Source of the DNA: Eledone cirrhosa
Lineage: Eukaryota
Assembly (NCBI GenBank): GCA_964016885.1
Contig: OZ024741.1
Location: forward strand, 333,250,001 to 333,314,000
Direction of reading: 5' to 3'
Length of the DNA stretch: 64,000 bases
The position numbers were made by a program, and so were the translations under genes. Under the pieces are notes generated by a model. The model worked only from the letters and a program-made list of their open reading frames with translations, was not told the origin of the DNA and searched no databases. Every line of letters begins with the position of its first letter. Within the stretch, counting starts at the first letter, position 1. This document shows, piece by piece, positions 1,812 through 63,076 of the stretch.

Positions 1812-2640
1812 ACTCTTTGAGTCTCAGTCATTGATGTTAGTTAACTGGAAAGTTTGTTGAGATGAATATCAAGCCACTACCTGCAGCCTCAGATATTCAG
1901 GACGTATCGGAGGGTTCTTGCTGTTCCCAGCAAGCATGCCTTTTGAAGCATTCCAAAAAGCGTGAAGGGGCCAATTTTCTTTAACCATCCCTGGAAACTT
2001 TTTGAGATAGTCCCTAGTGTGCCTATGACAATCGGGATCACTTTGACTTCATGGCAGTTCCAAATCCTTTTTATCTCCCACTTTAAGTCCTGGTATCGGT
2101 TAATTTTCTCCCACTTCTTCTCTTGCACTCTCGTGTCGAATGGGCAGGCCACATCCACAATCAGGCACGATCTTTTTTCTTTGTCCCAAACCACCAGGTC
2201 AGGTCTATTGTGTTCCAGTTTCTTGTCCGTCTGTATCCTAAAATCCCACAGCACCTTCACCTGATCGTTTTCTATCACCGCCTCTGGCTTATGCTCATAC
2301 CACTTCTCAGAATGTGGTAAATTGTTTACTTTGCATAGGTGCCAGTGGATCACCCTGCCCATCACATCATGTCTCCAGCCCTTATAGTGAGTCTGGGCTA
2401 GGTGTTTACACTCGGATACAATGTGAGCCACAGTCTCCTCTCTCTCTCCACAGATCCTGCACAGTGGGCTAGCCTCCTCCTTGTAAATGTGGTGTTTCAA
2501 CCACTTCGTTTTGAGGGCCTGCTCCTGCGCAGCCATTAACATTCCTTCTGTAGCCTTTTTAAGGTCTCCTCTTTTCAACCAGTTCCATGTCTGTGGATCT
2601 CTAAATTCAGTTTTCTCAAAGAAGGTACTATGAAGGGATT
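1812..2640 (-). mobile_element. R4/Dong-type non-LTR retrotransposon 3' fragment (CCHC knuckle + restriction-like endonuclease)
   Basis: ORF 1889-2671 contains CRICGEREETVAHIVSEC, RHD and RPDLVV..IVDV..K..RY.DL. Both ends lie in (TAA/ATT)n. The N-terminal IIIII of the ORF is microsatellite. Confidence 0.88.
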
Positions 2641-2806
2641 TTATTTTTATTATTATTATTATTATTTGCATTTATCTTGCTTTATGTTCATATGAGTTAT
2701 CACCAAGTCACAACCAGTGACCTCAAGAGACAACAAGGTCCGCCATGTTCAAGAAAGAACATACATATTCACACATGCATCCTTAGTGTTTAGACTTGTG
2801 ATGTAC

Positions 2807-5083
2807 TTATATTGACAGGATCTTCCTTAGTATATGGGCAGTTCCCATTAGTACTATCTTTTGTATTTCTCCTATACGCGGGTTTCCTGGGATTTGCGAT
2901 AAGTAGTCGTTAGACCCCTTAGGTATCATTCCCAGAGCGCCTACAACCACTGGTATTGTTTTAGTTCTCAATTTCCACATTTTTCCAATTTCTATCTCCA
3001 GGTCCTTATACTTGCTCAATTTTTCAAATGTTTTTATAGATACATTCTTGTCTATTGGAACAGACATATCAATTAGCAGGCGTACCCTCCTTTGAAAGTC
3101 CTTCAATATTATATCAGGTCTATTTGCATCTATTTTTCGGTCTGTTTGGATGCTAAAGTTCCACAAGATTGAGATGTGATCTTTTTCAAGTATGGGAGGT
3201 GGTTGATGCTCCCACCAATTCTTTTGATGGGGCAGGTCAAAATGCTTACACATTATCCAATGTATGTATTGTGCAGCTCTGTCATGCCTGTTTAGGTATT
3301 CGGTTGGAGCTATAGGACTGCACATTGAAATTATATGGTCAATGGTCTCTGGTTGTTTTTTGCATACACGGCATAATGGGCTGCACCCATTTTTTATTAT
3401 GTTGGCTTGGTAATTTTTTGTTGGCAGACACTGATCTTGTGCCGATATAATCAGTCCTTCAGTCTCCGATTTCAGTCCAGAGGATGCCAACCACTGATGG
3501 GTTAAAGTTTTGTCAACATCAGGATTGTTAGCTCTTTCTGGGTATTTTCCATACAGAGGCTTTTCTTGCCATTTCTTAGCCAGTTTCTGTAGCAGTTCTT
3601 TCTTTGCAGTTACTTTTACCTGCTTTGCTTTTTCTGTGTTTTCCATTTCAGCAGTAAATGGGACTTCCGAAATTTGTAGTCCATTACTGTATCTTTGTGC
3701 ATCTTTTGTAATGGAATATGATCTTTTGGTGCTTTCGTGTTTCAAAACGAGTTTGATCATCCAATCATGTGATTCCCTTAGATATGTGGATAACCCAATT
3801 GTTGCAGTTTTCAACGCAATGTCTAACTGGATTAACCCACGTCCTCCTTCTTTCCTAGGGAGATATATTCTATCTATGTCTGCCTTAGGGTGATGCATTC
3901 TGTGCATGGTTAAGAATTTTCGGATTTTTGTATCGAGCCTACGGATCTCTGTGCTTGACCAGTTGATGACATTGTAACTGTAGGTTACTACTGGTATGGC
4001 AAGCGTGTTTATGGCATCGATCCTATTCCTTGCATTCAATTCCGTTCTTAAGATTGTGCGGTAACATTCCTTCCTTATCCTTTCCCTCATTGTCGAGTGC
4101 TTGATTCCGTCTCCTTCACAAACACCTAGATATTTGTAAGTTTTTTCTTGATCAAGCTCTCTTATCACGTTCCCCCAATCAAGATTAATGTCTGAACTCT
4201 TCAGCAGCTTTCCTCTGGTGAACGTTGCTTTGGCGCATTTATCCAGTCCAAACTCCATTTTAATGTCATCACTGAACTGCTTCACAGTGGATAATAGCCC
4301 TTGCAATTGTTCATCATTTTTTGCAAATAGTTTCAGGTCATCCATGTAGAACAGGTGATTAATGGTTTTGTCATAGACTCTATATCCATGTTTTGTTTCA
4401 TTGAGCATTTTACTTAATGGTATAAGTGCGATGCAGAATAAAAGCGGTGATAAAGAGTCACCCTGAAAAATTCCACAATTAATATTAACTTCTCCAGCTT
4501 CCAGTGATTTTGTTTCACTATTCAAAAGGAGTGTTGTTCTCCATGTCTTCATACTGAATGACAAAAACCTCCTGACAACGGGGGATATTTTGAAAATCTC
4601 TAAACATTTTTCAATCCAACTGTGTGGCAAACTATCGAATGCTTTTTTATAATCTATCCAAGCAATCGATAGATTTTTGTGTCTATTATGACAATCTTCC
4701 AGTATCATTTTGTTAACCAGAAGCTGATCCTTACAGCCATATGAGCCTCGTTTACACCCTTTCTGCTCAATGGGAAATAGGTCATTTGTTATCAGGTGGT
4801 CATATGCGTATTCAGTTAGGACTGATGTTAAAATTTTATACATTGTGGTCAAGCAGGTTATCGGTCTGTAATTTTTGGGATTGTTTGTCTCATCATTCTT
4901 CGGTAACAGGAATGTAATGCTGTTAACTAGCCATGATGGTATCTTTTCTGGCTCCTTAACTATTTCATTGTAAAGTTGGGCTAACAGCTCATGAGACTCT
5001 GTGAAGGCATTTATCCAAAAGTTTTGTATTTTGTCTTTTCCTGGGGATTTCCATTTGCTGGTTTTTCTTAGAGCCAAGCGCAA
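2807..5083 (-). CDS. R4/Dong-type retrotransposon ORF: reverse transcriptase + CCHC + RLE (5'-truncated element about 2668-5137)
   Basis: 758 aa open frame with NYRPITCL, WIDYKKAFDS, GIFQGDSLSPLLF, HLFYMDDLKL, YKYLG, CRVC..HIISMC, RHD and RPDIIL..LIDMS..K..KY. Flanked by (TAA)n. Confidence 0.93.
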   Translation of the reverse strand: MRLALRKTSKWKSPGKDKIQNFWINAFTESHELLAQLYNEIVKEPEKIPSWLVNSITFLLPKNDETNNPKNYRPITCLTTMYKILTSVLTEYAYDHLITNDLFPIEQKGCKRGSYGCKDQLLVNKMILEDCHNRHKNLSIAWIDYKKAFDSLPHSWIEKCLEIFKISPVVRRFLSFSMKTWRTTLLLNSETKSLEAGEVNINCGIFQGDSLSPLLFCIALIPLSKMLNETKHGYRVYDKTINHLFYMDDLKLFAKNDEQLQGLLSTVKQFSDDIKMEFGLDKCAKATFTRGKLLKSSDINLDWGNVIRELDQEKTYKYLGVCEGDGIKHSTMRERIRKECYRTILRTELNARNRIDAINTLAIPVVTYSYNVINWSSTEIRRLDTKIRKFLTMHRMHHPKADIDRIYLPRKEGGRGLIQLDIALKTATIGLSTYLRESHDWMIKLVLKHESTKRSYSITKDAQRYSNGLQISEVPFTAEMENTEKAKQVKVTAKKELLQKLAKKWQEKPLYGKYPERANNPDVDKTLTHQWLASSGLKSETEGLIISAQDQCLPTKNYQANIIKNGCSPLCRVCKKQPETIDHIISMCSPIAPTEYLNRHDRAAQYIHWIMCKHFDLPHQKNWWEHQPPPILEKDHISILWNFSIQTDRKIDANRPDIILKDFQRRVRLLIDMSVPIDKNVSIKTFEKLSKYKDLEIEIGKMWKLRTKTIPVVVGALGMIPKGSNDYLSQIPGNPRIGEIQKIVLMGTAHILRKILSI

Positions 5084-5134
5084 CTGTTCAACTGTTATAT
5101 TTTCTCATGTTTGTTCTTCAAGGTGAGCTGTTTC

Positions 5135-12222: not shown

Positions 12223-12678
12223 GTAAGTATGTATGTATGTATACGTACATACATATATGTATACAGACGTACAGTAGTATGTATATATATACACATATGC
12301 ACACATATATATATATGCACGTATCGGTTTACCGAACATTTATTATAATGCTCGGTTTGTTTGTTTGTAAACAAACAAACAAACAGCCCGAACTACGCCA
12401 TACAGTGTTTAGGCAACCACGTCACCTTTTTGTTCAACACTGACACAGGAACGATGTACTAGTTTCAAGCTTATTAGCTATCGTCAGCATCGTATACCTT
12501 CCTCCCAGATGGTTGAACGTCTGAAAGTATATACTTTCCTTATGCATATTAACGGCTGAGCAGCCTAATTTCCATATCGCGTGAGTTCAGTCGGCCGGGC
12601 ACACCGAAAACGATAAATGGAATAGAATGAAAGTGCCGTACTAAGAGTGAGAAATGAAATTTCGTTTCATTCTATTCT
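12223..12678. mobile_element. Family 3 non-coding HHR element (retrozyme/mini-PLE-like), copy A
   Basis: Homologous to 17427-18188, 57268-58026 and 62602-63070. Minus arm 12223-12631 plus inverted tail 12632-12678; embedded in (TA)n. Confidence 0.85.
12451..12493 (-). ncRNA. Type I hammerhead ribozyme, family 3
   Basis: ACGAUG CUGACGA U AGCU AAUA AGCU U GAAA CUAG UA CAUCGU: perfect 6-bp stem I and palindromic ACUAGU stem III (dimer-competent). Confidence 0.88.
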
Positions 12679-12859
12679 ATATGTATATATATATATGTAT
12701 ATATGTATATGTATATATATATGTATATGTATATATATATGAATATGTATATGTATATATATATGTATATATATATGTATATATATATGTATATATATAT
12801 GTATATATATATGTATATATATATGTATATATATATGTATATATATATGTATATATATA

Positions 12860-15060
12860 GTAATAATAATAAATTTGAAGACTAAAATCCAAAGAGGGCT
12901 CGATAAGGATAAATATATATCAAATATATAAGAACCGTAGAGCAAATATTTATTAAAATAACAGATTAAAGTTTAAGCAAAGAATCGCTGCTTTCACCCT
13001 TAACGGGATCTTCTGAAACTAACAAAGTCAATCTGTAAACGCAGAACTGGATATTTCAAAAAACGTTGCAACCGGAGGAAGACAGGAAGACGATACTTTG
13101 GTTCGTGGAAACGTTCGCTGGCAAAGAACGGGAAAAAACGAATAATACGTCATTAATAGGAGCGGTGAAAAACAATTACGCGCAAAGACAGAACCACGTT
13201 TATGGTATAAAAGAGGTCGTAGACTAATGTTCTCTTAGGTGGTGCATAGAGACGTTCTCTGGCAATGAACCAATAAACCGAAGATAATACGTCATATGTG
13301 GAGCGTGGAGAACAATAGCACGCAAAGACAAAACCACGTAAATGGTATAGCAGAAGTCGTAGACTAAAATTCTAACTAGGAGACCAAATGAATCTCCGCT
13401 ACAGAGTTAAGAACAGTAAATAAATACAATACAGAAGTAATAGAAATAAATAAATACATACACGCAAACAAATACGTACATACACAAGCATACGCAAAAC
13501 CTTACCATAGGTATACAAAACCACGCACATATAAATATGTGTGTGTGTGTATGCGTGTATACAAATAAATAAATAATTATATAAACGTATATAAATATAT
13601 AAATACGTATATAACAAGCGCACACACATACCTACATATAAATACACGAATGTTCGGAGACGTAGGTCAACTAAAACAAGAAGTACACAATACACACACC
13701 CACCATACGTACGAACCTGCATACTCACACAGACGCAAAACTCCCGTATACACATAGCCAAACCCTATGTACCAGAATATATAAAATTATACGCCAAAAC
13801 AATCAAATATACGTACGAGAAGGTATACGTACCTTCACAAAACAAACGGGTAATACATACTTACCTATGCAAATAAGTAAAGGAATAAACAAAACATATA
13901 CTTAGCTCCCACATCAAGACGTAAAATATCCACGTATAGATCGTACTCTCCGTTAGGGTATAAAGTGGGGCTGTAATACAGGAAAGTTATGTGCAATTTA
14001 TGTTTACAAGCCGAAATTGCCTCAGATTTTTTGTTTAAGATGTGGTCTGTGGCGTAGAGTATTTCCAGGGCCTCAGCGGCGCAGAGGTCACATGATCTTT
14101 TATTTCCGTTATACGATCTAGCCCTAGCTAGGATCTCACAGTGTAACTTATATTGGGTGTGGTTGTCTTTTAGACTCCAGATATAAGCTGAAAGTGACGT
14201 CATATTCCTTCTTAGAGGGTAACGAAAAGAATGGGTATGCATGTAAAGTCGCTGCTTGAAACTATTGGCGGTTAACCCTATGTAGGCCCTACGGGACGTG
14301 GGTGTTACAACCTTACATTTGTAGACAATGTTACTAGAGAGGCATTTCCCGGATATGGGGCAATCAGCCCGATTCCTACAATTACAGTTAGTACTAACTA
14401 CAGGGTTGCACGTGTTCCTACGGCTAGGTAGTTTAGCTAAATTTGAAGCTGTGATGTTATGTGCAAGGTTAGGAGTCGTAGAGTAAAAAATTTTAATAAT
14501 ATTTCTATTAAAAATTTTACTATATTTATGTGTAGGGGGAAAATGCTTCGTAATAAGGGAAAGAAAGATCTTAGCTAATGGTGTGGCCACCTCCATATTA
14601 TATGGTGGGTTATACTAACAAATTCGACGGGATCTATTTCTTATAGGTCTATTTTCGTACTCAGTATAAGCTACCTTATCGACAAATCCACTTCGAGCAA
14701 GAGCTTCATTGTAATAAGTGGAATGGTCGTTGAAAATACGCTCGTTGGTGGAAAGACGGGAAAGCCTCAACGAAACGTTTCTTACCAGGTTCTTGGTTAT
14801 GCTGGCAGGATGGTTGGAATGCTTACTTATGTAATTAAGCGTATCATTCGGCTTTCTATACGGGTAATACAATCCATTCAATAAATTGAGGGTAACGTCG
14901 AGGTAATTAACAACCGAGAGATTGGCCTCAATCTGTATAGAGAGGTTGAAGCCTTTAAAGAAGGCTGTGAGTTCTTTTCTGAACCTGTCGCAAGCACGAG
15001 GTCCGCACTTAGTCATGGTCAAAAGACCATCGTCACGGTACAAGCCACCGCCTGCGATAT
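12860..15060 (-). mobile_element. Penelope-like retroelement (Hydra-clade-like), 5'-truncated: RT C-half + GIY-YIG + 1-kb 3' region
   Basis: GGGLYRDDGL..NYLDVTLNL..YRKPND in 14615-15060, then frameshift to CNCRNRADCPISGKCL..NIVYKC..YIGLT..FKQR..H..SF..LSAYIW..CDLC..LNKKSE..CKH in 13865-14596. Clade assigned from recalled motifs only. Confidence 0.88.
12970..13020 (-). ncRNA. Hammerhead ribozyme in the PLE pseudo-LTR (U4A core variant)
   Basis: AGUUU CAGAAGA U CCC GUUAA GGG U GAAA GCAG CGAUUCU UUGC UU AAACU: all three stems pair. Confidence 0.7.
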
Positions 15061-15171
15061 GTGAGAAAAAATGTGAGATATATATGAGAGATATATATGT
15101 GAGAAAATATATGAGATATATATGTGAGATATATATGTGAGAAAAACCACAGACCCTCCATCTCAACTCTA

Positions 15172-15207
15172 CTTTTGAAAAGCAGAAGAACTGCGAAACG
15201 GGTAAAG
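15172..15207 (+). ncRNA. Candidate hammerhead with U3-A8 compensatory core
   Basis: CUU UUGAAAA GCAG AAGAA CUGC GAAA CGGG UA AAG; stem I is only 3 bp. Confidence 0.5.
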
Positions 15208-15347
15208 GAACCAAATAAATATATATATATTTAAACAAAAAATAAGACTCCAGTTGCATTTTCGATTTCATCTTTTTTTCTTTATACTTTCACTCGTGTA
15301 GTACACCTCGGTTATTTTTCATTTTGTAAAAAAAACCTCACTTTCTA

Positions 15348-17260: not shown

Positions 17261-17379
17261 ATTCTACTTCTGCGGGTTCTTTCAGACACGGGTGTTATGT
17301 CCGGAGCACATTTTATCACAGTGATAAAATTTGCTCCGGACATAACACCCGTGTCTGAAAGAACCCGCAGAAGTAGAAT
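17261..17379. repeat. Near-perfect 119-bp palindrome
   Basis: ATTCTACTTCTGCGGG...TATCAC A GTGATA...CCCGCAGAAGTAGAAT, with one mismatch seen. Confidence 0.9.
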
Positions 17380-17440
17380 CAGCCAGATCCATACAAGGAC
17401 CATGACTCAAGCTACCTGCCAGCGAAACACTGACACAGGA

Positions 17441-17483
17441 ACGATGTACTAGTTTCAAGCTTGTTAGCTATCATCAGCACCGT
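17441..17483 (-). ncRNA. Hammerhead ribozyme, family 3
   Basis: ACGGUG CUGAUGA U AGCU AACA AGCU U GAAA CUAG UA CAUCGU. Confidence 0.88.
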
Positions 17484-17722
17484 ATACCCATCTGCCAGAT
17501 AGTTGAACGTTCGAAAGTATATACTTTCCTTATGAAAATTAACGGCTGAGCAGCCTAATTTGCATATCGAGTGAGCTAAGTCGGTCAGGCATACCGAAAA
17601 CGATAAGTTGAAATAAAATTAAAACGAAATTTCATTTCTCACTCTTAGTACGGCACTTACTTAAATGTAAGTATGTATGTATACGTACATACATATATGT
17701 ATACAGACGTACAGTAGCATGC

Positions 17723-17754
<32 letters not shown>

Positions 17755-17899
17755 ACATACAGGTACACATACATATATGCACGTATCAGTTTAGCGGACG
17801 CTTATTATAACGCCGCTTTGTTCGTTTGTAAACAAACTGAACAGCTTGAATTTTTATGTCGTACGGTGTTAAGGCAACCACGTCACCTTTTTGTTCAAC

Positions 17900-17942
17900 A
17901 CGGTGCTGATGATAGCTAACAAGCTTGAAACTAGTACATCGT
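17900..17942 (+). ncRNA. Hammerhead ribozyme, family 3
   Basis: Same sequence as the 17441 copy, on the plus strand; the arm begins at the first base of stem I. Confidence 0.88.
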
Positions 17943-18096
17943 TCCTGTGTCAGTGTTGAACAAAAAGGTGACGTGGTTGCCTTAACACCGTACCTCATAA
18001 AAATTCAGGTTGTTCAGTTTGTTTACAAACGAACAAAGCGGCGTTATAATAAGCGTCCGCTAAACTGATACGTGCATATATGTATGTGTACCTGTA

Positions 18097-18127
<31 letters not shown>

Positions 18128-18196
18128 GTATATGCATGCTACTGTACGTCTGTATACATATATGTATGTACGTATACACACATACTTACATTTATG

Positions 18197-18362
<166 letters not shown>

Positions 18363-18459: not shown

Positions 18460-18608
18460 ATTATTTAACGATCGTTTCTAGGATATATATGTGTTAGAAT
18501 TGGCATGCATATTCAACAGATCTATGTACAAAATTATACAAAATTATACAAACTATCAAAATTAAATATACATACCAAACACATATATATGCCGTCTTCA
18601 GAAATAAT
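18460..18608 (-). ncRNA. Hammerhead ribozyme, family 4 (mirror copy)
   Basis: Reverse complement of 18607-18755. Confidence 0.72.
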
Positions 18609-18755
18609 TATTTCTGAAGACGGCATATATATGTGTTTGGTATGTATATTTAATTTTGATAGTTTGTATAATTTTGTATAATTTTGTACATAGATCTGTT
18701 GAATATGCATGCCAATTCTAACACATATATATCCTAGAAACGATCGTTAAATAAT
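18607..18755 (+). ncRNA. Hammerhead ribozyme with ~115-nt extended stem II, family 4
   Basis: AUUAUUU CUGAAGA [long hairpin: AUAUAUAUGUGUU/AACACAUAUAUAU and UGGUAUGUAUAUU/AAUAUGCAUGCCA] GAAA CGAUCG UU AAAUAAU. 7-bp stem I and palindromic ACGAUCGU. Confidence 0.75.
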
Positions 18756-18964: not shown

Positions 18965-19133
<169 letters not shown>

Positions 19134-19348
19134 TTCGTTTCTGAATTTGTTTAGCAAGATTCTTTATCTGAAATCGTGTGTTGAAACCGATATTGTTATA
19201 CTTTGGGAGGGTCATGTTGCCAATAAGAAACACACGCACCAGTTGCTTTCACTTCAATTTAATTTAATATATATTTATAAATTTACAAATTTATAAATTT
19301 CTGGTTGGTTGGTTGGTTCCACAACCAGATAGTTGTTTATATATATAT

Positions 19349-19393
19349 AGTCATAGTTCTTTCGTCACACACTCTGTGACCTCTTCAGTGACT
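19349..19393 (-). ncRNA. Hammerhead ribozyme, family 1 (mirror copy)
   Basis: Reverse complement of 20915-20959. Confidence 0.85.
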
Positions 19394-19689
19394 GGGGATT
19401 TCTTTCTTCGTTTCTGTGCCTTTCCTTTCTTCTATCCTACGCCATTTTGTTTGTGTGTGGGTTGCGTGCTCAGTTTGCGCATGCGCCACATCCGGGTGTC
19501 TGTGTGTGTTTGTGTTCATTTTTCTATTTTTCTATTTATATTTGTTTGTTTATTTATTTATTTATTGTTGGTTGGTTGTTTGTTCTATGTGTGTGTGTGT
19601 TTTCATTTTGTCTTGTGTGTGTTTTCATTTTGTGTGTGTTTTCAATTGTAAGTTGTTTATATGTGTGTGTGTGTGTTTTCATTTTGTCC

Positions 19690-20149
19690 TTAATTGTAAG
19701 TTGTGATGTTGCTGTTCCACTCATATTTTCTATTTAATTTTGGTTTTAATTCTTTTATGCTTACTGCCTCTGTAATTTGCCTAAACATTGCGTCTTTCTT
19801 GTGTGTGGATTCTATTTTTATTTCTATGCTCTCTAATTTACCCCTGTGTTCTATCTTAGCATGTTGGTAGAGCACAGATGATTCTTTACTATCTTGGAGG
19901 TCTCGCCAGTGTTCATTTATTCGTTCCCCTATACTACGAGCTGTCTCACCTATGTACACTATATTTTTGTTTCTACATTGTCCCTCAGTACATCTTATGC
20001 TATATACTACATTTCTAGTTTTACAGTTAATATGGGGGCTTATTTTACAGGTTATACATTTCTTATCTATACATGAGGGTCTTTGGAACGGGTATGTCTT
20101 GCTAATAAGTGTTTTTACGGAGGTACCAGGTATTTCTACTATCTTAATA
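19690..20149 (-). pseudogene. PLE GIY-YIG endonuclease C-terminal fragment (mirror)
   Basis: Reverse complement of 20159-20618. Confidence 0.85.
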
Positions 20150-20156
20150 CTATCTC

Positions 20157-20618
20157 AATATTAAGATAGTAGAAAGACCTGGTACCTCCGTAAAAACACT
20201 TATTAGCAAGACATACCCGTTCCAAAGACCCTCATGTATAGATAAGAAATGTATAACCTGTAAAATAAGCCCCCATATTAACTGTAAAACTAGAAATGTA
20301 GTATATAGCATAAGATGTACTGAGGGACAATGTAGAAACAAAAATATAGTGTACATAGGTGAGACAGCTCGTAGTATAGGGGAACGAATAAATGAACACT
20401 GGCGAGACCTCCAAGATAGTAAAGAATCATCTGTGCTCTACCAACATGCTAAGATAGAACACAGGGGTAAATTAGAGAGCATAGAAATAAAAATAGAATC
20501 CACACACAAGAAAGACGCAATGTTTAGGCAAATTACAGAGGCAGTAAGTATAAAAGAATTAAAACCAAAATTAAATAGAAAATATGAGTGGAACAGCAAC
20601 ATCACAACTTACAATTAA
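20157..20618 (+). pseudogene. PLE Cys-rich linker + GIY-YIG endonuclease (Naiad-like), 5'-truncated
   Basis: The frame extends upstream of the listed ORF: NIKIVERPGTSVKTLISKTYPFQRPSCIDKKCITCKISPHINCKTRNVVYSIRCTEGQCRNKNIVYIGETARS..R..EH..RQITEAVSI..LNRKYEW. Clade assigned from recalled motifs. Confidence 0.87.
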
Positions 20619-20810
20619 GGACAAAATGAAAACACACACACACACATATAAACAACTTACAATTGAAAACACACACAAAATGAAAACACACACAAGACAA
20701 AATGAAAACACACACACACATAGAACAAACAACCAACCAACAATAAATAAATAAATAAACAAACAAATATAAATAGAAAAATAGAAAAATGAACACAAAC
20801 ACACACAGAC

Positions 20811-20869
20811 ACCCGGATGTGGCGCATGCGCAAACTGAGCACGCAACCCACACACAAACAAAATGGCGT
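20811..20869 (+). promoter_or_regulatory. Candidate pseudo-LTR promoter motif cluster (ETS, NRF1, YY1)
   Basis: ACCCGGATGT, GCGCATGCGCA and CAAAATGGCG within 60 bp, about 45 bp upstream of the HHR. Confidence 0.5.
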
Positions 20870-20914
20870 AGGATAGAAGAAAGGAAAGGCACAGAAACGA
20901 AGAAAGAAATCCCC

Positions 20915-20959
20915 AGTCACTGAAGAGGTCACAGAGTGTGTGACGAAAGAACTATGACT
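20915..20959 (+). ncRNA. Type I minimal hammerhead ribozyme, family 1
   Basis: AGUCA CUGAAGA G GUCACA GAGUG UGUGAC GAAA GAAC UA UGACU. Confidence 0.85.
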
Positions 20960-21218
20960 ATATATATATAAACAACTATCTGGTTGTGGAACCAACCAAC
21001 CAACCAGAAATTTATAAATTTGTAAATTTATAAATATATATTAAATTAAATTGAAGTGAAAGCAACTGGTGCGTGTGTTTCTTATTGGCAACATGACCCT
21101 CCCAAAGTATAACAATATATATATATATATATGTATATATATATCCATGATATCCGGATTACATTGAGTTGTTCATATGGATTGGACACTACCGTAACCT
21201 TTTGGTAGATTTATCTAC

Positions 21219-23926
<2,708 letters not shown>

Positions 23927-24004
23927 TCTAGTCAAATCGGACCGAGGAAACTATGTTTCCGTTGGTCTTTCCAATTGCTAATACTATCTATCGGTCGCAA
24001 CTCC

Positions 24005-24354
24005 ATAAAAATGAAAGGCAGGTTATACGATGCCAGCATACGAACAGCAATGTTGCCTGGAGTGAGACTTGGGCATCGTGTGCAGAGGATATACGCAGAC
24101 TAGAGAGGAGCGAAGCTTGTATGCTCTGCTGGATGTGTAATAGTAATATACGTGAACGGCAAAACATAAACGAACTAAGGAAAAAATTAGAAATAAGAGG
24201 GATCAGATGTTGTTTCCTCGAGAGAAGGCTACGTTGGTATGGTCACGTGATGTGCATGAAAGACGACAGCTGTATAACAAAGTGCAGGGCAATAAAGATA
24301 GACGGTAGCCACGGAGTAGGCAGACCCAGAAAAACCTGGGACGAGCTGATAAAC
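24005..24354 (+). mobile_element. RTE-clade LINE 3' fragment (duplicate of about 27760-28109)
   Basis: MLCWMCN..LRKKLEIR..RRLRWYGHV..GRPRKTW; cut by the gap. Confidence 0.8.
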
Positions 24355-24554
24355 NNNNNNNNNNNNNNNNNNNNNNNNNNNNNNNNNNNNNNNNNNNNNN
24401 NNNNNNNNNNNNNNNNNNNNNNNNNNNNNNNNNNNNNNNNNNNNNNNNNNNNNNNNNNNNNNNNNNNNNNNNNNNNNNNNNNNNNNNNNNNNNNNNNNNN
24501 NNNNNNNNNNNNNNNNNNNNNNNNNNNNNNNNNNNNNNNNNNNNNNNNNNNNNN
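24355..24554. other. Assembly gap (200 N)
   Basis: N run. Confidence 1.
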
Positions 24555-28109
<3,555 letters not shown>

Positions 28110-57267: not shown

Positions 57268-57271
<4 letters not shown>

Positions 57272-58026
57272 TATGTATACGTACATACATATATGTATAC
57301 AGACGTACAGTAGTATGTATATATATATACATATATGCACACATATATATATATGTACGTATGGATTCACCGAACATTTATTATAATGCTCGGTGTGTTT
57401 GTAAACAAACACAGCGAGCATTATAATAAATGTTCGGTGAGTCCATACGTACATATATATATGTGTGCATGTATGTATATATATATACATACTACTGTAC
57501 GTCTGTATACATATATGTATGTACGTATACATACTTATATTTAAGTAACAGCCGTACTAAGAGTGGGAAATGAAATTTCGTTTCATTTTTTCCGTTTATC
57601 GTTTTCGGTGCACCCGGCCGATTAACACACTCGATATGCAAATTGGCTACTCAGCCGTTAATATGCATAAGGAAAGTATATACTTTCAGACGTTCAACCA
57701 TCTGGCAGGAAGGTATACGTTGCTGACGATAGCTAATAAGCTTGAAACTAGTACTGCGTTCCTTTGTCAGTGTTGAACAAATGAGCAACGATGGTTGTTA
57801 GACACTGTACGGCTTAATTCGGGATGTTTGTTTACAAACACACCGAGCATTACCATAAATGTTCGGTGAATCCATACGTACATATATATATGTGTGCATG
57901 TATGTATATATATATACATACTACTGTACGTCTGTATACATATATGTATGTACGTATACATACTTATATTTAAGTAACAGCCGTACTAAGAGTGAGAAAT
58001 GAAATTTCGTTTCATTTTTTCCATTT
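57268..58026. mobile_element. Family 3 element copy C: short minus arm plus 1.4 tandem monomers (period about 429 bp)
   Basis: 57428-57597 is repeated at 57857-58026. Confidence 0.9.
57717..57759 (+). ncRNA. Hammerhead ribozyme, family 3
   Basis: ACGUUG CUGACGA U AGCU AAUA AGCU U GAAA CUAG UA CUGCGU. Confidence 0.82.
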
Positions 58027-58155
<129 letters not shown>

Positions 58156-58212
58156 TATATATATATATCCATATATAATATTAGATCAAAAGATTGTTAA
58201 TAGAGTTCCAAG

Positions 58213-58283
58213 TATTATATTATGCGCATTTCAAAAACAAATATCATCATGGGATGATATCTGCGTTCTCATCAGATAAAATA
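58213..58283 (-). ncRNA. Type I hammerhead ribozyme in the PLE pseudo-LTR
   Basis: UAUUUUAU CUGAUGA GAACGCAGAUAUCAUC CCAU GAUGAUAUUUGUUUUU GAAA UGCGCA UA AUAUAAUA; palindromic AUGCGCAU. Confidence 0.85.
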
Positions 58284-60521
58284 AGGAGACATGATATGAA
58301 GCTTAAAAAACACTTGTGAGCAGTGAAGTTTTAAATCAACATATGAAAAATAAAGTAAGGAAAAGGTAAGGAAGATGAAGAAAGAAAATATTGGGGGAGG
58401 AGTATAAGAAAGAAAATGTTGGGGGAGTAGTATAAGAAGGAAGGATGAGAGAGGCGGAGAAATGAGTGATAGAGAGAGAGAAATAGCCTTTACAACTGAG
58501 AAAACATTGTCTCACAGAGAGAAATTAAAAAACCGTTGGAAGATAATAGATAATTTAAAAAGATTTTGAAATTAAAAGTTAATGAGGTTTATGGATGTTG
58601 ATGTTTATGATTGAAGAAAAAGGAATTAGGAATAGTATTAATTTAGGTTTATATATTGAAGGGTTTAATAATATGTGCGAAAAAAAGAATTTATTAATAT
58701 GTATTATTAAAATAAAAATATTAATGATATTAAGGATATAATGTGAAAGAAGGAGAAGAATAAATGAATTATGAATTTAGAGGAATTAGTTAGGGTTTAA
58801 GTTTATTTTTATGTATTGTAATATGTCAAAGTAAATAATAGGTTTAAAACGAGCACGGAAGGAGAGAAGAAAAAAGAGAATTTAAGGAAGAAAAAATATC
58901 TAACGTCAAAAAGTATATATGTTTACAAAAATTTTCTAATGGTAATATTATTATATATTAAAAATATATAGTTTCTATTGCCAATAATATGAGGAAAAAA
59001 TGGAAAATGGAAAATGCTGTAGTGAGTAATAATATGAATTGAGAAGTAATAGGGAAGTAAAAGTTACAGATTAAAGATTAGAAATTAAAAAAGAAAAAGA
59101 AAGAAAGGAAAAAGGATAAAAAGAAGAAATATAGGGGATCACAACGACATAGAGTGAGTAAATTGTATAATATAATATAATATACTGAAATAAGGTAGAA
59201 AGATGGGTATATTTGTAAAAGATCTAAAAGCCTTTGAGAAAAGAGGATTTTAAACTAATTAGGTATTGATATATTAGCTGTATACTTTATGGAATGTTCT
59301 ATGGGATTTATGCAAGCAGAGCGAAAATAAATCCATACGTCTATTTATTATAGAATTAAAATTAGATATAATAGTAAATTTCTCGGCTAGGCAGAGATTA
59401 CATGTTCTGGATAGGGAAGAATTCTGGTAAGGAAAGGCGTTGCAAACCTTCCTCCAAGAGATGTTATAGTTAATATTTTTCTCTTTTAAGGACCATATGA
59501 GTTCCGAGAGTGCCGTGTTAGTCCTTTTAAGTTGGTATTTAAAAGACGATTTGTGATTATAAAATCTTGCTTTAAAGGAAGTAGAAGTGGAACCGAAATA
59601 GGTAAAAGAATTAGTACCAGTTATAACCTTACATTCATACACTAAGATTTGATCAAGACATTGGTTATTAAGAGGACATTTAGTTCTAACAGGGCAATTA
59701 CAATTACGATTAGAGAAATTAACAGAGTTATTAACAGTGACCTAGTATTATTTATAGAAGGAATTGGATTGGAGAAGTTATTTACGATAGGAACTATAGT
59801 TTCCTGATTTAGATTGGTATTATGAACATTCAACGAAGTTACGTTTGACGTCGTATTTAAATTTACTGAATCTAGCCTAGAGTTAACATTGACGTCGGGT
59901 GTACTACTGCTATTATTATGACGCTCAGTGTTGGATGGATGTAATTTATTACTTAATATTTTATTATTGTGTTTAGAGATAATGTTAGAGATGTTGGAAG
60001 TGGTGGAATAAGAGAATTTGATTGTATGTTTGTTAAAGATTTTACTATAGATATGCGAGGGAGGGAAGCATTTATCTAAGGCCCTAAAGAATAGTTTAGG
60101 GATATTATTAGTGATAGATAGAGAAAAAGGAGCATTATACCAAATCATATTTTTTGTATCTAGGTCTTTTATTTAACTTATTGGAATGTTCATAATTAAC
60201 TATTTTACTATAAGTCCTTCGATGATTGATTTCTTTACTGTATTTAATTTTATCAGGATAGCCGGCTTTGGAAAGCGCATTATTATAGTAATTGGTATTA
60301 GCGTCGAAGATAACTTTATTAGAGGATAGATTTGAGATTCTTTTTCCAATATTACTGACTATAGCATTTTTAACGTCAGTGGAGTGGCTAGATTTAAAGT
60401 TAACATAATTTAGATTCTCATTGTTTTTATGGTAAAGGTAATATAGGCCAGTGTCAAGATTAAGGGATATATCCAAGAAGTTAGCTAGTTTGACGTTGTT
60501 ATCAAATTCAATTTTAAGGTT

Positions 60522-60950
60522 CTCTATCTAAGGCGGGTAAAATTCCCGAGATCCATGGACGAGTTCTCTCCAGCGGTCTCTGTCCCTCATTATCGCTGCC
60601 ATATCCTGCATCTCCAACAGACCAGTGTCTGTCCTTAGGGCATCAACATATGTTAACCTTGGTCTTCCACTTCTAGTGTGTCCATGTAGAGACATGAAAA
60701 TCCGCCTCTTCATTGCTGTAGTGGAGTCTGTGCTGCTGTATGGGTCTGAGACTTGGACACTGACCAAGAGACTCACTCAGATGGTGGATGGGTGCTACAC
60801 GAGAATGCTGAGGATGGCTCTGAACATTAATCAGTATACACTGAGGATGAAAAACTCAGAGCTGTATGGGAGCATCCCAAAAGTCAGCTCAAAAGTGACA
60901 CAGAGGAGACTGAGGTTGGCTGGACATGCTCACCGACATCCAGAGTTGAC
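60522..60950 (-). mobile_element. 5'-inverted, truncated RTE-like LINE nested in the PLE RT; 11-bp TSD
   Basis: TSD ATTTTAAGGTT at 60511-60521 and 60951-60961. The plus piece reads ESVLLYGSETWTLTK..RRLRLAGH..HPELT; the minus piece reads HGHTRSGRPRLTYVD..DRDRWR. Confidence 0.9.
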
Positions 60951-61599
60951 ATTTTAAGGTTATGGTGCTTAAATAGATCAAGTATATTGTTCTTAATAAT
61001 ATTAAGGTTAACTAAGTTACAGTTTAAGACAGTAAAAAGGGCATCGTCACGATAAATTCCACCGGGAAGTTGAGAAATTTTCCGATTTAAAGAATTCAGA
61101 ATAAAGATACCAATCAAATCAGTCAATTGCGATGAATCGGAAGTACCCAATGTGATATCAAAATTGTTGGAAGTATCAGCTCTAGTCCAATATTCATTGT
61201 TGAATTCCAAGATAGTTTTTCTTGCGGTGAGAATGATGCAAAGTTCATCTGTGGTAATGTCAGAATATTTAAATGCGAAAGATAGAGCGTTGTTGAGGAG
61301 TGAAGGCGAAATAGAGGAATAGTAACTGACAATGTCAAACTGAATAAATTTTTGTTTGTTTTTATTATTCAGGTCATTGAACCAGACAATTATTCAGATG
61401 TACCAATCCATAAATTTAAGTTAGAAATAGAGCAATTAGAACGAACCGGTGGGATAATTCTATCCAAGATGAATTTATTAACAACTCCCAGATCAGATTT
61501 AGAGGGGGCGATTAGTCTAACAGGCAGTTCCGTTCGAAAGTTACTTTTATGATCCTTGAGATTTATCCTCGGAGTTCTTGGGAAGAATGTTTCGTACAT

Positions 61600-62601: not shown

Positions 62602-63070
62602 AAACGGAAAAAATGAAACGAAATTTCATTTCTCACTCTTAGTACGGCTGTTACTTACATATAAGTATGTATACGTACATACATATATGTATACAAACGT
62701 ACAGTAGTATGTATACATATATACATACATGCACACATATATATGTACGTATGGATGCACCGAACATTTATGATAATGCTCGGTGTGTTTGTAAACAAAC
62801 ATCCCGAATTAAGCCGTACAGTGTCTAGCAACCATCGTTGCTCATTTGTTCAACACTGACAAAGGAACGCTGTACTAGTTTCAAGCTTATTAGCTATCGT
62901 CAGCAACGTATACCTTCCTGCCAGATGGTTGAACGTCTGAAACACACCGAGCATTATAATAAATGTTCGGTGAATCCATACGTACATATATATATGTGTG
63001 CATCTATGTATATATACATATATACTACTGTACGTCTGTATACATATATGTATGTACGTATACATACTTA
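62602..63070. mobile_element. Family 3 element copy D (fold-back)
   Basis: Minus arm with tail 62602-62941; plus arm 62941-63070 ending CATACTTA. Confidence 0.88.
62867..62909 (-). ncRNA. Hammerhead ribozyme, family 3
   Basis: ACGUUG CUGACGA U AGCU AAUA AGCU U GAAA CUAG UA CAGCGU. Confidence 0.87.
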
Positions 63071-63076
63071 TATATG

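Follow-up and report, generated by a model that had tools for sequence, protein, structure and literature searches.

Four two-armed copies of a non-coding unit

The 64-kb window (the whole stretch of Eledone cirrhosa DNA that was analysed) holds four copies of a repeat whose unit measures 425–500 bp across the copies, has a GC content of 35–37% and carries no coding content. An earlier note on this DNA had placed the copies at 12223, 17427, 57268 and 62602, and all four were recovered, with boundaries called as 12223..12680, 17426..18198, 57268..58026 and 62602..63073. They are laid out as follows, copy C (57268..58026) being given part by part:

12223..12680, copy A: minus arm at about 12223-12634 ending at site S1, plus arm at 12635-12680 ending at site S2; hammerhead at 12456-12487 (-)
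17426..18198, copy B, of the B subfamily: minus arm at 17426-17901 with a broken left end, plus arm at 17900-18198 ending at S1; hammerheads on both strands
57268..57411, minus strand: inverted short arm of copy C; its 3' end is S1 (unit position ~375) and joins the left (TA)n
57412..58026, plus strand: direct arm of copy C, 1.43 units; its 3' end is S2 (unit position 429) and joins the right (TA)n
57598..58026, plus strand: full 429-bp unit, the reference of this analysis; GC 37%, no ORF above 68 aa
57636..57643, plus strand: ATGCAAAT octamer, present in both subfamilies and also lying within a predicted hairpin
57972..58026, plus strand: 'tail' of ~54 nt between the putative reverse-transcription start sites S1 and S2; hairpin at 57997-58017
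62602..63073, copy D: minus arm at 62602-62942 ending at S2, plus arm at 62940-63073 ending at S1; each arm is shorter than one unit

The unit is indeed non-coding, as had been claimed: the longest ATG ORF on both strands of its circularised form has 68 aa. In the arm maps of the sampled loci no internal region was bracketed by a pair of direct terminal repeats, i.e. there was no LTR layout.

In every copy two arms meet head to head and are anchored in (TA)n. This layout, present in A, B and D as well as in C, had been missed before. The head-to-tail 1.4-mer described for copy C corresponds to its direct arm (615 nt with a period of 429 bp, overlapping turns being identical at 180/186 positions), and 57268-57411 is the inverted second arm. 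Copy B is a single permuted unit, as proposed, with the permutation due to the broken left end at 17426, which lies away from either normal end; since 100 of the 207 arms sampled continue across the unit junction, copy B alone is no proof of closure. Copies A, C and D obey the S1/S2 rule set out below; B has one broken end.

Other repeats in the window were noted as well. Short perfect palindromes of other elements occupy 17265-17380, directly left of the broken end of copy B, and 18568-18647. Non-LTR retrotransposon ORFs with an RT domain, a restriction-like endonuclease tail (read by eye) and a tandem partial copy lie at 1889-5104 (-). Duplicated TA-rich blocks with identical flanks at 21145-27700, beside an N gap at 24355-24554, may represent an assembly duplication.

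The hammerhead motif and the predicted RNA fold

The type I hammerhead with a palindromic ACUAGU stem III reported by the earlier note was confirmed in the form CUGAcGA / stem II / GAAA / ACUAGU / A. The long rod with its GUUCAAC:GUUGAAC and CUGGCA:UGUCAG segments is likewise present, and so is the second hairpin, which remains paired in copy B despite a different sequence. On copy C these elements map to:

57692..57778, plus strand: long rod extending stem I, predicted fold
57718..57758, plus strand: predicted type I hammerhead; stem I at 57718-22/57754-58, CUGAcGA at 57723-29
57731..57742, plus strand: hammerhead stem II with U.U at its base; GAAA at 57744-47 and palindromic ACUAGU at 57747-52
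after A57753, plus strand: cut site as predicted from the motif only
57841..57867, plus strand: second hairpin; sequence changed and pairing kept in the B subfamily

Exact 32-nt hammerhead cores occur five times in the window, at 57723-57754 (+), 17906-17937 (+), 12456-12487 (-), 17446-17477 (-) and 62872-62903 (-), and two same-strand hammerheads within one copy were found in 0 of its 4 copies. Stem I of copy C contains a U.U mismatch (T57755, where relatives have A), and the middle pair of this stem across lineages is U-G in 18, G-U in 13 and A-U in 2 of 34. Among subfamilies and sister families the letters of the core are fixed, while N7 and stems I-III vary with pairing kept; the core is retained in this family and in sister families of 467 and 310 nt, with paired changes in stems II and III, in a comparison several rows of which had been found via the motif itself. 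A check of covariation had a mixed outcome: ten helices are 93–100% paired, but both-sided changes occur in 3 of 56 pairs, a level reached by 265 of 500 shuffles, and covariation across the few lineages sampled is suggestive only.

The unit folds far more strongly than its shuffles (z -8.3, 0/100 shuffles), in part owing to a self-complementary TA-rich block; folded as circles, units gave z of -7.8 and -10.3 with ~70% of bases paired, values inflated by the same block. In the predicted monomer fold the core is paired with UAGUA and so hidden, a pairing that would protect a circle. A stem III of two bases is unable to close alone, and ACUAGU pairs with itself (-4.8 kcal/mol, computed), which fits the dimer model in the available part of PMC4209133. 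The minimal hammerheads of Penelope pseudo-LTRs described there also share with our motif an extra base after A9, a palindromic 15.2-16.2 region and predicted dimer activity; unlike them, with their helix II of 7-8 bp, the present one has a helix II of 4 bp and a long helix I, and is nearer to canonical metazoan type I. The U.U at the base of helix II is shared with the axolotl HHR_Amex2, as far as the latter is described in the text available. It should be added that 8 of 9 Xenopus dimers failed to cleave in vitro, according to the accessible part of 10.64898/2026.07.22.740005. Rfam hammerhead models had no match on 57590-57860 at E up to 10, which has no bearing on function, and the Rfam scan of the window gave, among the matches listed (150 of 404), only microRNA-model noise on TA repeats.

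Further hammerhead repeats were seen alongside. L019:2300-3261 represents a related retrozyme family with a 468-bp unit, an ACUAGU stem III, a different stem II and a similar tail layout. Very young arrays of a 310-bp hammerhead unit with an ACGCGU stem III occur at L100:6730-9001 and L091:1-560; this unit has the GTCTTCAAA motif in common with the tail of the Hydra family treated below. Hammerhead-like motifs of other repeat families in the window lie at 945, 5910, 5986, 19388, 20920, 41133, 55317, 55640 and 58275.

Abundance of the family and the one-site-per-arm rule

The loci mapped comprised the window, L002-L030 (the best matches to copy C), L031-L100 (core matches listed first on contig 1, together with two array regions) and two loci from a protein search, after removal of 16 overlapping loci. 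Genome-wide, the 32-nt core has 24,366 exact matches in 3.0 Gb versus 0 for a reversed-pattern control, and the copies are dispersed across many chromosomes. With more than 24,000 cores this is a sizeable repeat, undescribed in the literature searched: no description of the family was found in publications on retrozymes or hammerheads in octopus or cephalopods, with supplements, Dfam and Repbase lying outside the comparison. Successive cores are separated by unit lengths of ~420-540 bp, the spread coming mostly from the TA-rich block. There are two subfamilies, ~14% divergent, and about six sub-lineages as judged by eye; a 422-nt sub-lineage with an 8-nt deletion also belongs here, L061 being its 4.15-kb palindromic array.

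Many arms exceed one unit (97/207 sampled), and 100/207 join the unit to itself head to tail; two or more ribozymes were present in 18 of 160 sampled arms. Head-to-tail arrays reach from 3 to more than 10 units. Duplication at the DNA level is evident in arrays L086, L061 and L098, and long homogeneous arrays are therefore no proof of rolling-circle copying. Array length was not correlated with age (rho 0, 58 insertions). Circular dimers as the origin of period-two arrays were considered and rejected for L086, the turn 1 of which lacks two changes common to turns 3 and 5. As a separate observation, in L098-L099 and G000:C1:51775192-51793575 units have expanded into arrays that resemble satellites, with higher-order periods of two and three units.

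The 3' ends of arms are concentrated at two sites ~54 nt apart: 60 of 160 complete arms end at S1 (unit position ~375), 69 at S2 (429) and 31 elsewhere; of the 129 ends at the two sites, 118 continue into (TA)n. For one sequence variant counted across the genome, 2,447 S2 sites run into (TA)n versus 2,915 which continue into the next unit. Moreover, the two arms of a pair take one site each. Both ends were defined in 33 of 52 head-to-head pairs, and 32 of these 33 combined S1 with S2 (31/32, p ~1e-8, after removal of a duplicated segment); a second set, picked by tail variant with 26/30 loci kept, showed one of each in 10 of 11, among 16 pairs. Outer ends are thus two different sites, and inner arm ends are scattered. 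Inspected by eye, one insertion has a short target duplication rich in AT. Loci L083, L014 and L075 look like chimeras with other elements, but a nested insertion or later deletions offer the better reading.

Another palindromic repeat in (TA)n deserves mention in its own right. It is short, very abundant (L034:1771-1960, L057:1922-2115, L078:2225-2419 and many more loci) and has arms of ~60 and 140 nt with two fixed outer ends and, unlike the retrozyme family, nearly fixed inner ends; it looks like a Penelope-copied short linear RNA mimicking a MITE.

Two Penelope-like elements adjoin copies in the window:

12860..15256, minus strand: Hydra-clade Penelope-like element, 5'-truncated and ORF-bearing, adjoining copy A; context and control, and a candidate only as partner
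58180..61393, minus strand: broken Penelope-like element of a second related family, adjoining copy C, with its own hammerhead at 58275 (-)

The family of the element next to copy A is abundant, with 74,547 candidates at first look, and its ORF has 713 aa with RT and C-terminal GIY-YIG motifs, RWR, DKT and CxCX5C, and no CCHH seen by eye. By the definition in the available part of PMC8557442 this family falls into the Hydra clade, with which its Atlas neighbours agree loosely; an assignment of the neighbouring elements to Neptune was rejected, as the motifs fit Hydra. Pfam and PDB sequence searches with the 713-aa ORF returned no match. In 40 regions of this family, 75 of 87 arm ends lie at two sites 89 nt apart, and one of each was found in 20 of 22 fully defined pairs (of 29). 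Since an ORF-bearing Hydra-clade family shows the same pairing, the rule belongs to Penelope-like insertion in this genome. It was not found described in the literature on Penelope twin priming or rolling-circle copying, supplements lying outside that comparison. In the copies viewed of this family (window 12860-13200 (-); L236), CAGAAGA replaces CUGANGA in the hammerhead-like motif. An inverted pair of GIY-YIG-bearing arms was also noted at 19133-21215 of the window.

Searches for an autonomous partner by end similarity found none among 30 loci of one Hydra family and 30 GIY-YIG loci, and a relaxed tail pattern had no match. The 5' ends of unpaired arms carried no recurring foreign sequence except separate repeats.

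Mobilisation, template and rival readings

Mobilisation of the unit by Penelope-like machinery is well supported by the sequence evidence. According to the available parts of PMC11167929 and PMC8557442, two start sites and a tail form the Penelope signature. As in the Penelope-like elements described in the same texts, those of the Hydra clade especially, the insertions have (TA)n targets, an inverted, 5'-truncated second copy, a tail at a single end, two internal start sites and a hammerhead upstream of the ends. They differ in lacking an ORF with RT and GIY-YIG, or any other, and in their tail of ~54 nt versus 30-40 nt typically, and 89 nt in the Hydra family studied here; nor do they match in sequence the Penelope-like ends examined. 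The suggestion that the repeat is a non-autonomous, hammerhead-bearing retrozyme parasitic on Penelope-like elements agrees with its non-coding tandem unit, its more than 24,000 cores and two fixed 3' ends at (TA)n, and is also backed by the inverted second arm and the shared end rule in the ORF-bearing family.

Metazoan non-LTR retrozymes as a class have already been described (PMC7229834; 10.64898/2026.07.22.740005), and, judged from its sequence, the unit has every feature of them to be seen at that level. In comparison with what the accessible parts of these two sources report, shared features are non-coding tandem units that carry a type I hammerhead, a low GC content, many copies, co-existence with Penelope-like elements and a short palindromic helix III expected to favour dimers. 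At 425-500 bp the unit is above the usual retrozyme range of 150-450 bp and inside the 51-972 bp of 10.64898/2026.07.22.740005. Its copies mostly amount to 1-1.5 units, arranged as two opposed arms whose ends are fixed at two sites, a layout absent from the accessible descriptions in both sources.

What template was copied can be approached from the arms themselves. At 38 lineage-diagnostic sites the arms of one insertion differ in 63/1,825 comparisons (3.5%; per-locus mean 6.2%) and its turns in 71/2,874 (2.5%; per-locus mean 5.3%), against a between-locus discordance inside one subfamily of 21% (arm comparison) and 9.7% (turn comparison); the low arm discordance indicates a single RNA or a single source lineage behind both arms. 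Rare alleles are weakly shared (6/147 common to both arms, 19/169 common to turns, 10 of these from one array; background 0.66%) and mostly private, as expected for changes after insertion. The ribozyme cut site is read through at least 24,366 times. Junction-like matches there numbered 90, versus 142 at a control site 11 nt downstream, a test whose anchors are unequal in length and in how far they tolerate TA flanks, and which speaks solely for no large excess. Counted by hand, the first 100 of 937 matches gave a flat distribution, with ~12 of 57 junctions within 2 nt of the cut site, over 17 positions. A cut linear monomer would stop arms at the cut site; no such accumulation of ends was seen, which leaves a circle or an uncut multimer as template, and of these the circle is where we lean.

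The explanation we consider reasonably probable is thus a retrozyme inserted by a Penelope-like RT/endonuclease from both strands of the break, probably copying round a circular, unit-length RNA. A source locus with at least two same-strand ribozymes would be transcribed; paired ribozymes would then form the six-base ACUAGU helix and cut, and the unit would be ligated into a circle. A Penelope-like enzyme, likely a dimer, would cut (TA)n, with S1 priming one strand and S2 the other, as the footprint in the DNA suggests. The DNA itself shows that both copies pass the unit junction as well as the cut site, break off at scattered positions and are joined head to head, and that some arrays are lengthened by later DNA duplication. 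The four window copies would be dead ends.

A competing view, which we regard as distinctly less likely though still serious, retains the enzyme and start sites and takes as template an uncut linear multimer from few tandem master arrays homogenised by DNA duplication, the ribozyme being incidental or trimming ends. Several points count against this view: about six sub-lineages, told apart by eye, are each homogeneous over arms and turns, which demands repeated passage through one unit; the ribozyme core, although it would destroy a linear template, is kept in diverged families; and internal priming would lose sequence every round. The absence of stops at the cut site, on the other hand, is equally consistent with uncut RNA, DNA-level duplication is present, including period-two spacing, and a search for RNA-editing scars showed no A-to-G strand bias (81 vs 69). 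Furthermore, unprocessed RNA is the main in vitro substrate of a Penelope-like enzyme, with the start site the same for both strands, in the available part of PMC11167929.

It is improbable that the copies represent pseudo-LTR ends which became detached from a Penelope-like element with an ORF. ORF-bearing elements do adjoin copies A and C, and 24 of 57 Xenopus retrozyme families resemble known elements, nearly all of them Penelope-like ends (10.64898/2026.07.22.740005, available part); yet these neighbours carry different ribozymes without an alignable end, the sole ORF contact examined (L083) is an insertion into an ORF, and recurring foreign sequence is absent from unpaired 5' ends apart from separate repeats. 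The unit is also self-joined head to tail in 100/207 arms. A pseudo-LTR as the ultimate origin of the unit is possible. Least credible of all is a satellite or MITE-like palindrome that arose at the DNA level and resembles a ribozyme by chance. Inverted arms do look like terminal inverted repeats, DNA duplication has enlarged some arrays and Rfam gave no hammerhead match; against this reading, the outer ends are two different sites and not one inverted repeat, inner ends are scattered, copies are dispersed on many chromosomes and an RT-encoding element obeys the same end rule.

Returning to the circular-RNA reading, we would tentatively extend it to an enzyme dimer acting on one circular ribozyme RNA, with one start site per DNA strand yielding two opposed rolling-circle cDNAs. 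The rule might then be general for Penelope-like enzymes, and the genome could preserve, as fossils, such events in their tens of thousands from several competing circular RNA families. A route by which animal retrozymes return to DNA has been proposed, without demonstration in the accessible parts of the literature examined. The present family links a retrozyme to a Penelope enzyme by its footprint. It also fixes the start sites exactly on a 430-nt RNA and makes of the known 'tail at one end only' a rule that can be counted and that an ORF-bearing Hydra-clade element shares; together these make the choices between circle and uncut multimer, and between one RNA and two, testable in vitro.

As to transcription of the unit, newt satellite 2 has an snRNA-type promoter. 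Motifs common to 12 U1 upstream regions were missing from both units, in which only the octamer was present, and no consistent A/B box was found in the units. The U1 snRNA genes themselves (L191-L202) share two candidate promoter elements of this animal: A[AG/CT]TCAGT at about -60 and, at about -255, a motif resembling TT[AT]C/TCCCTTGA.
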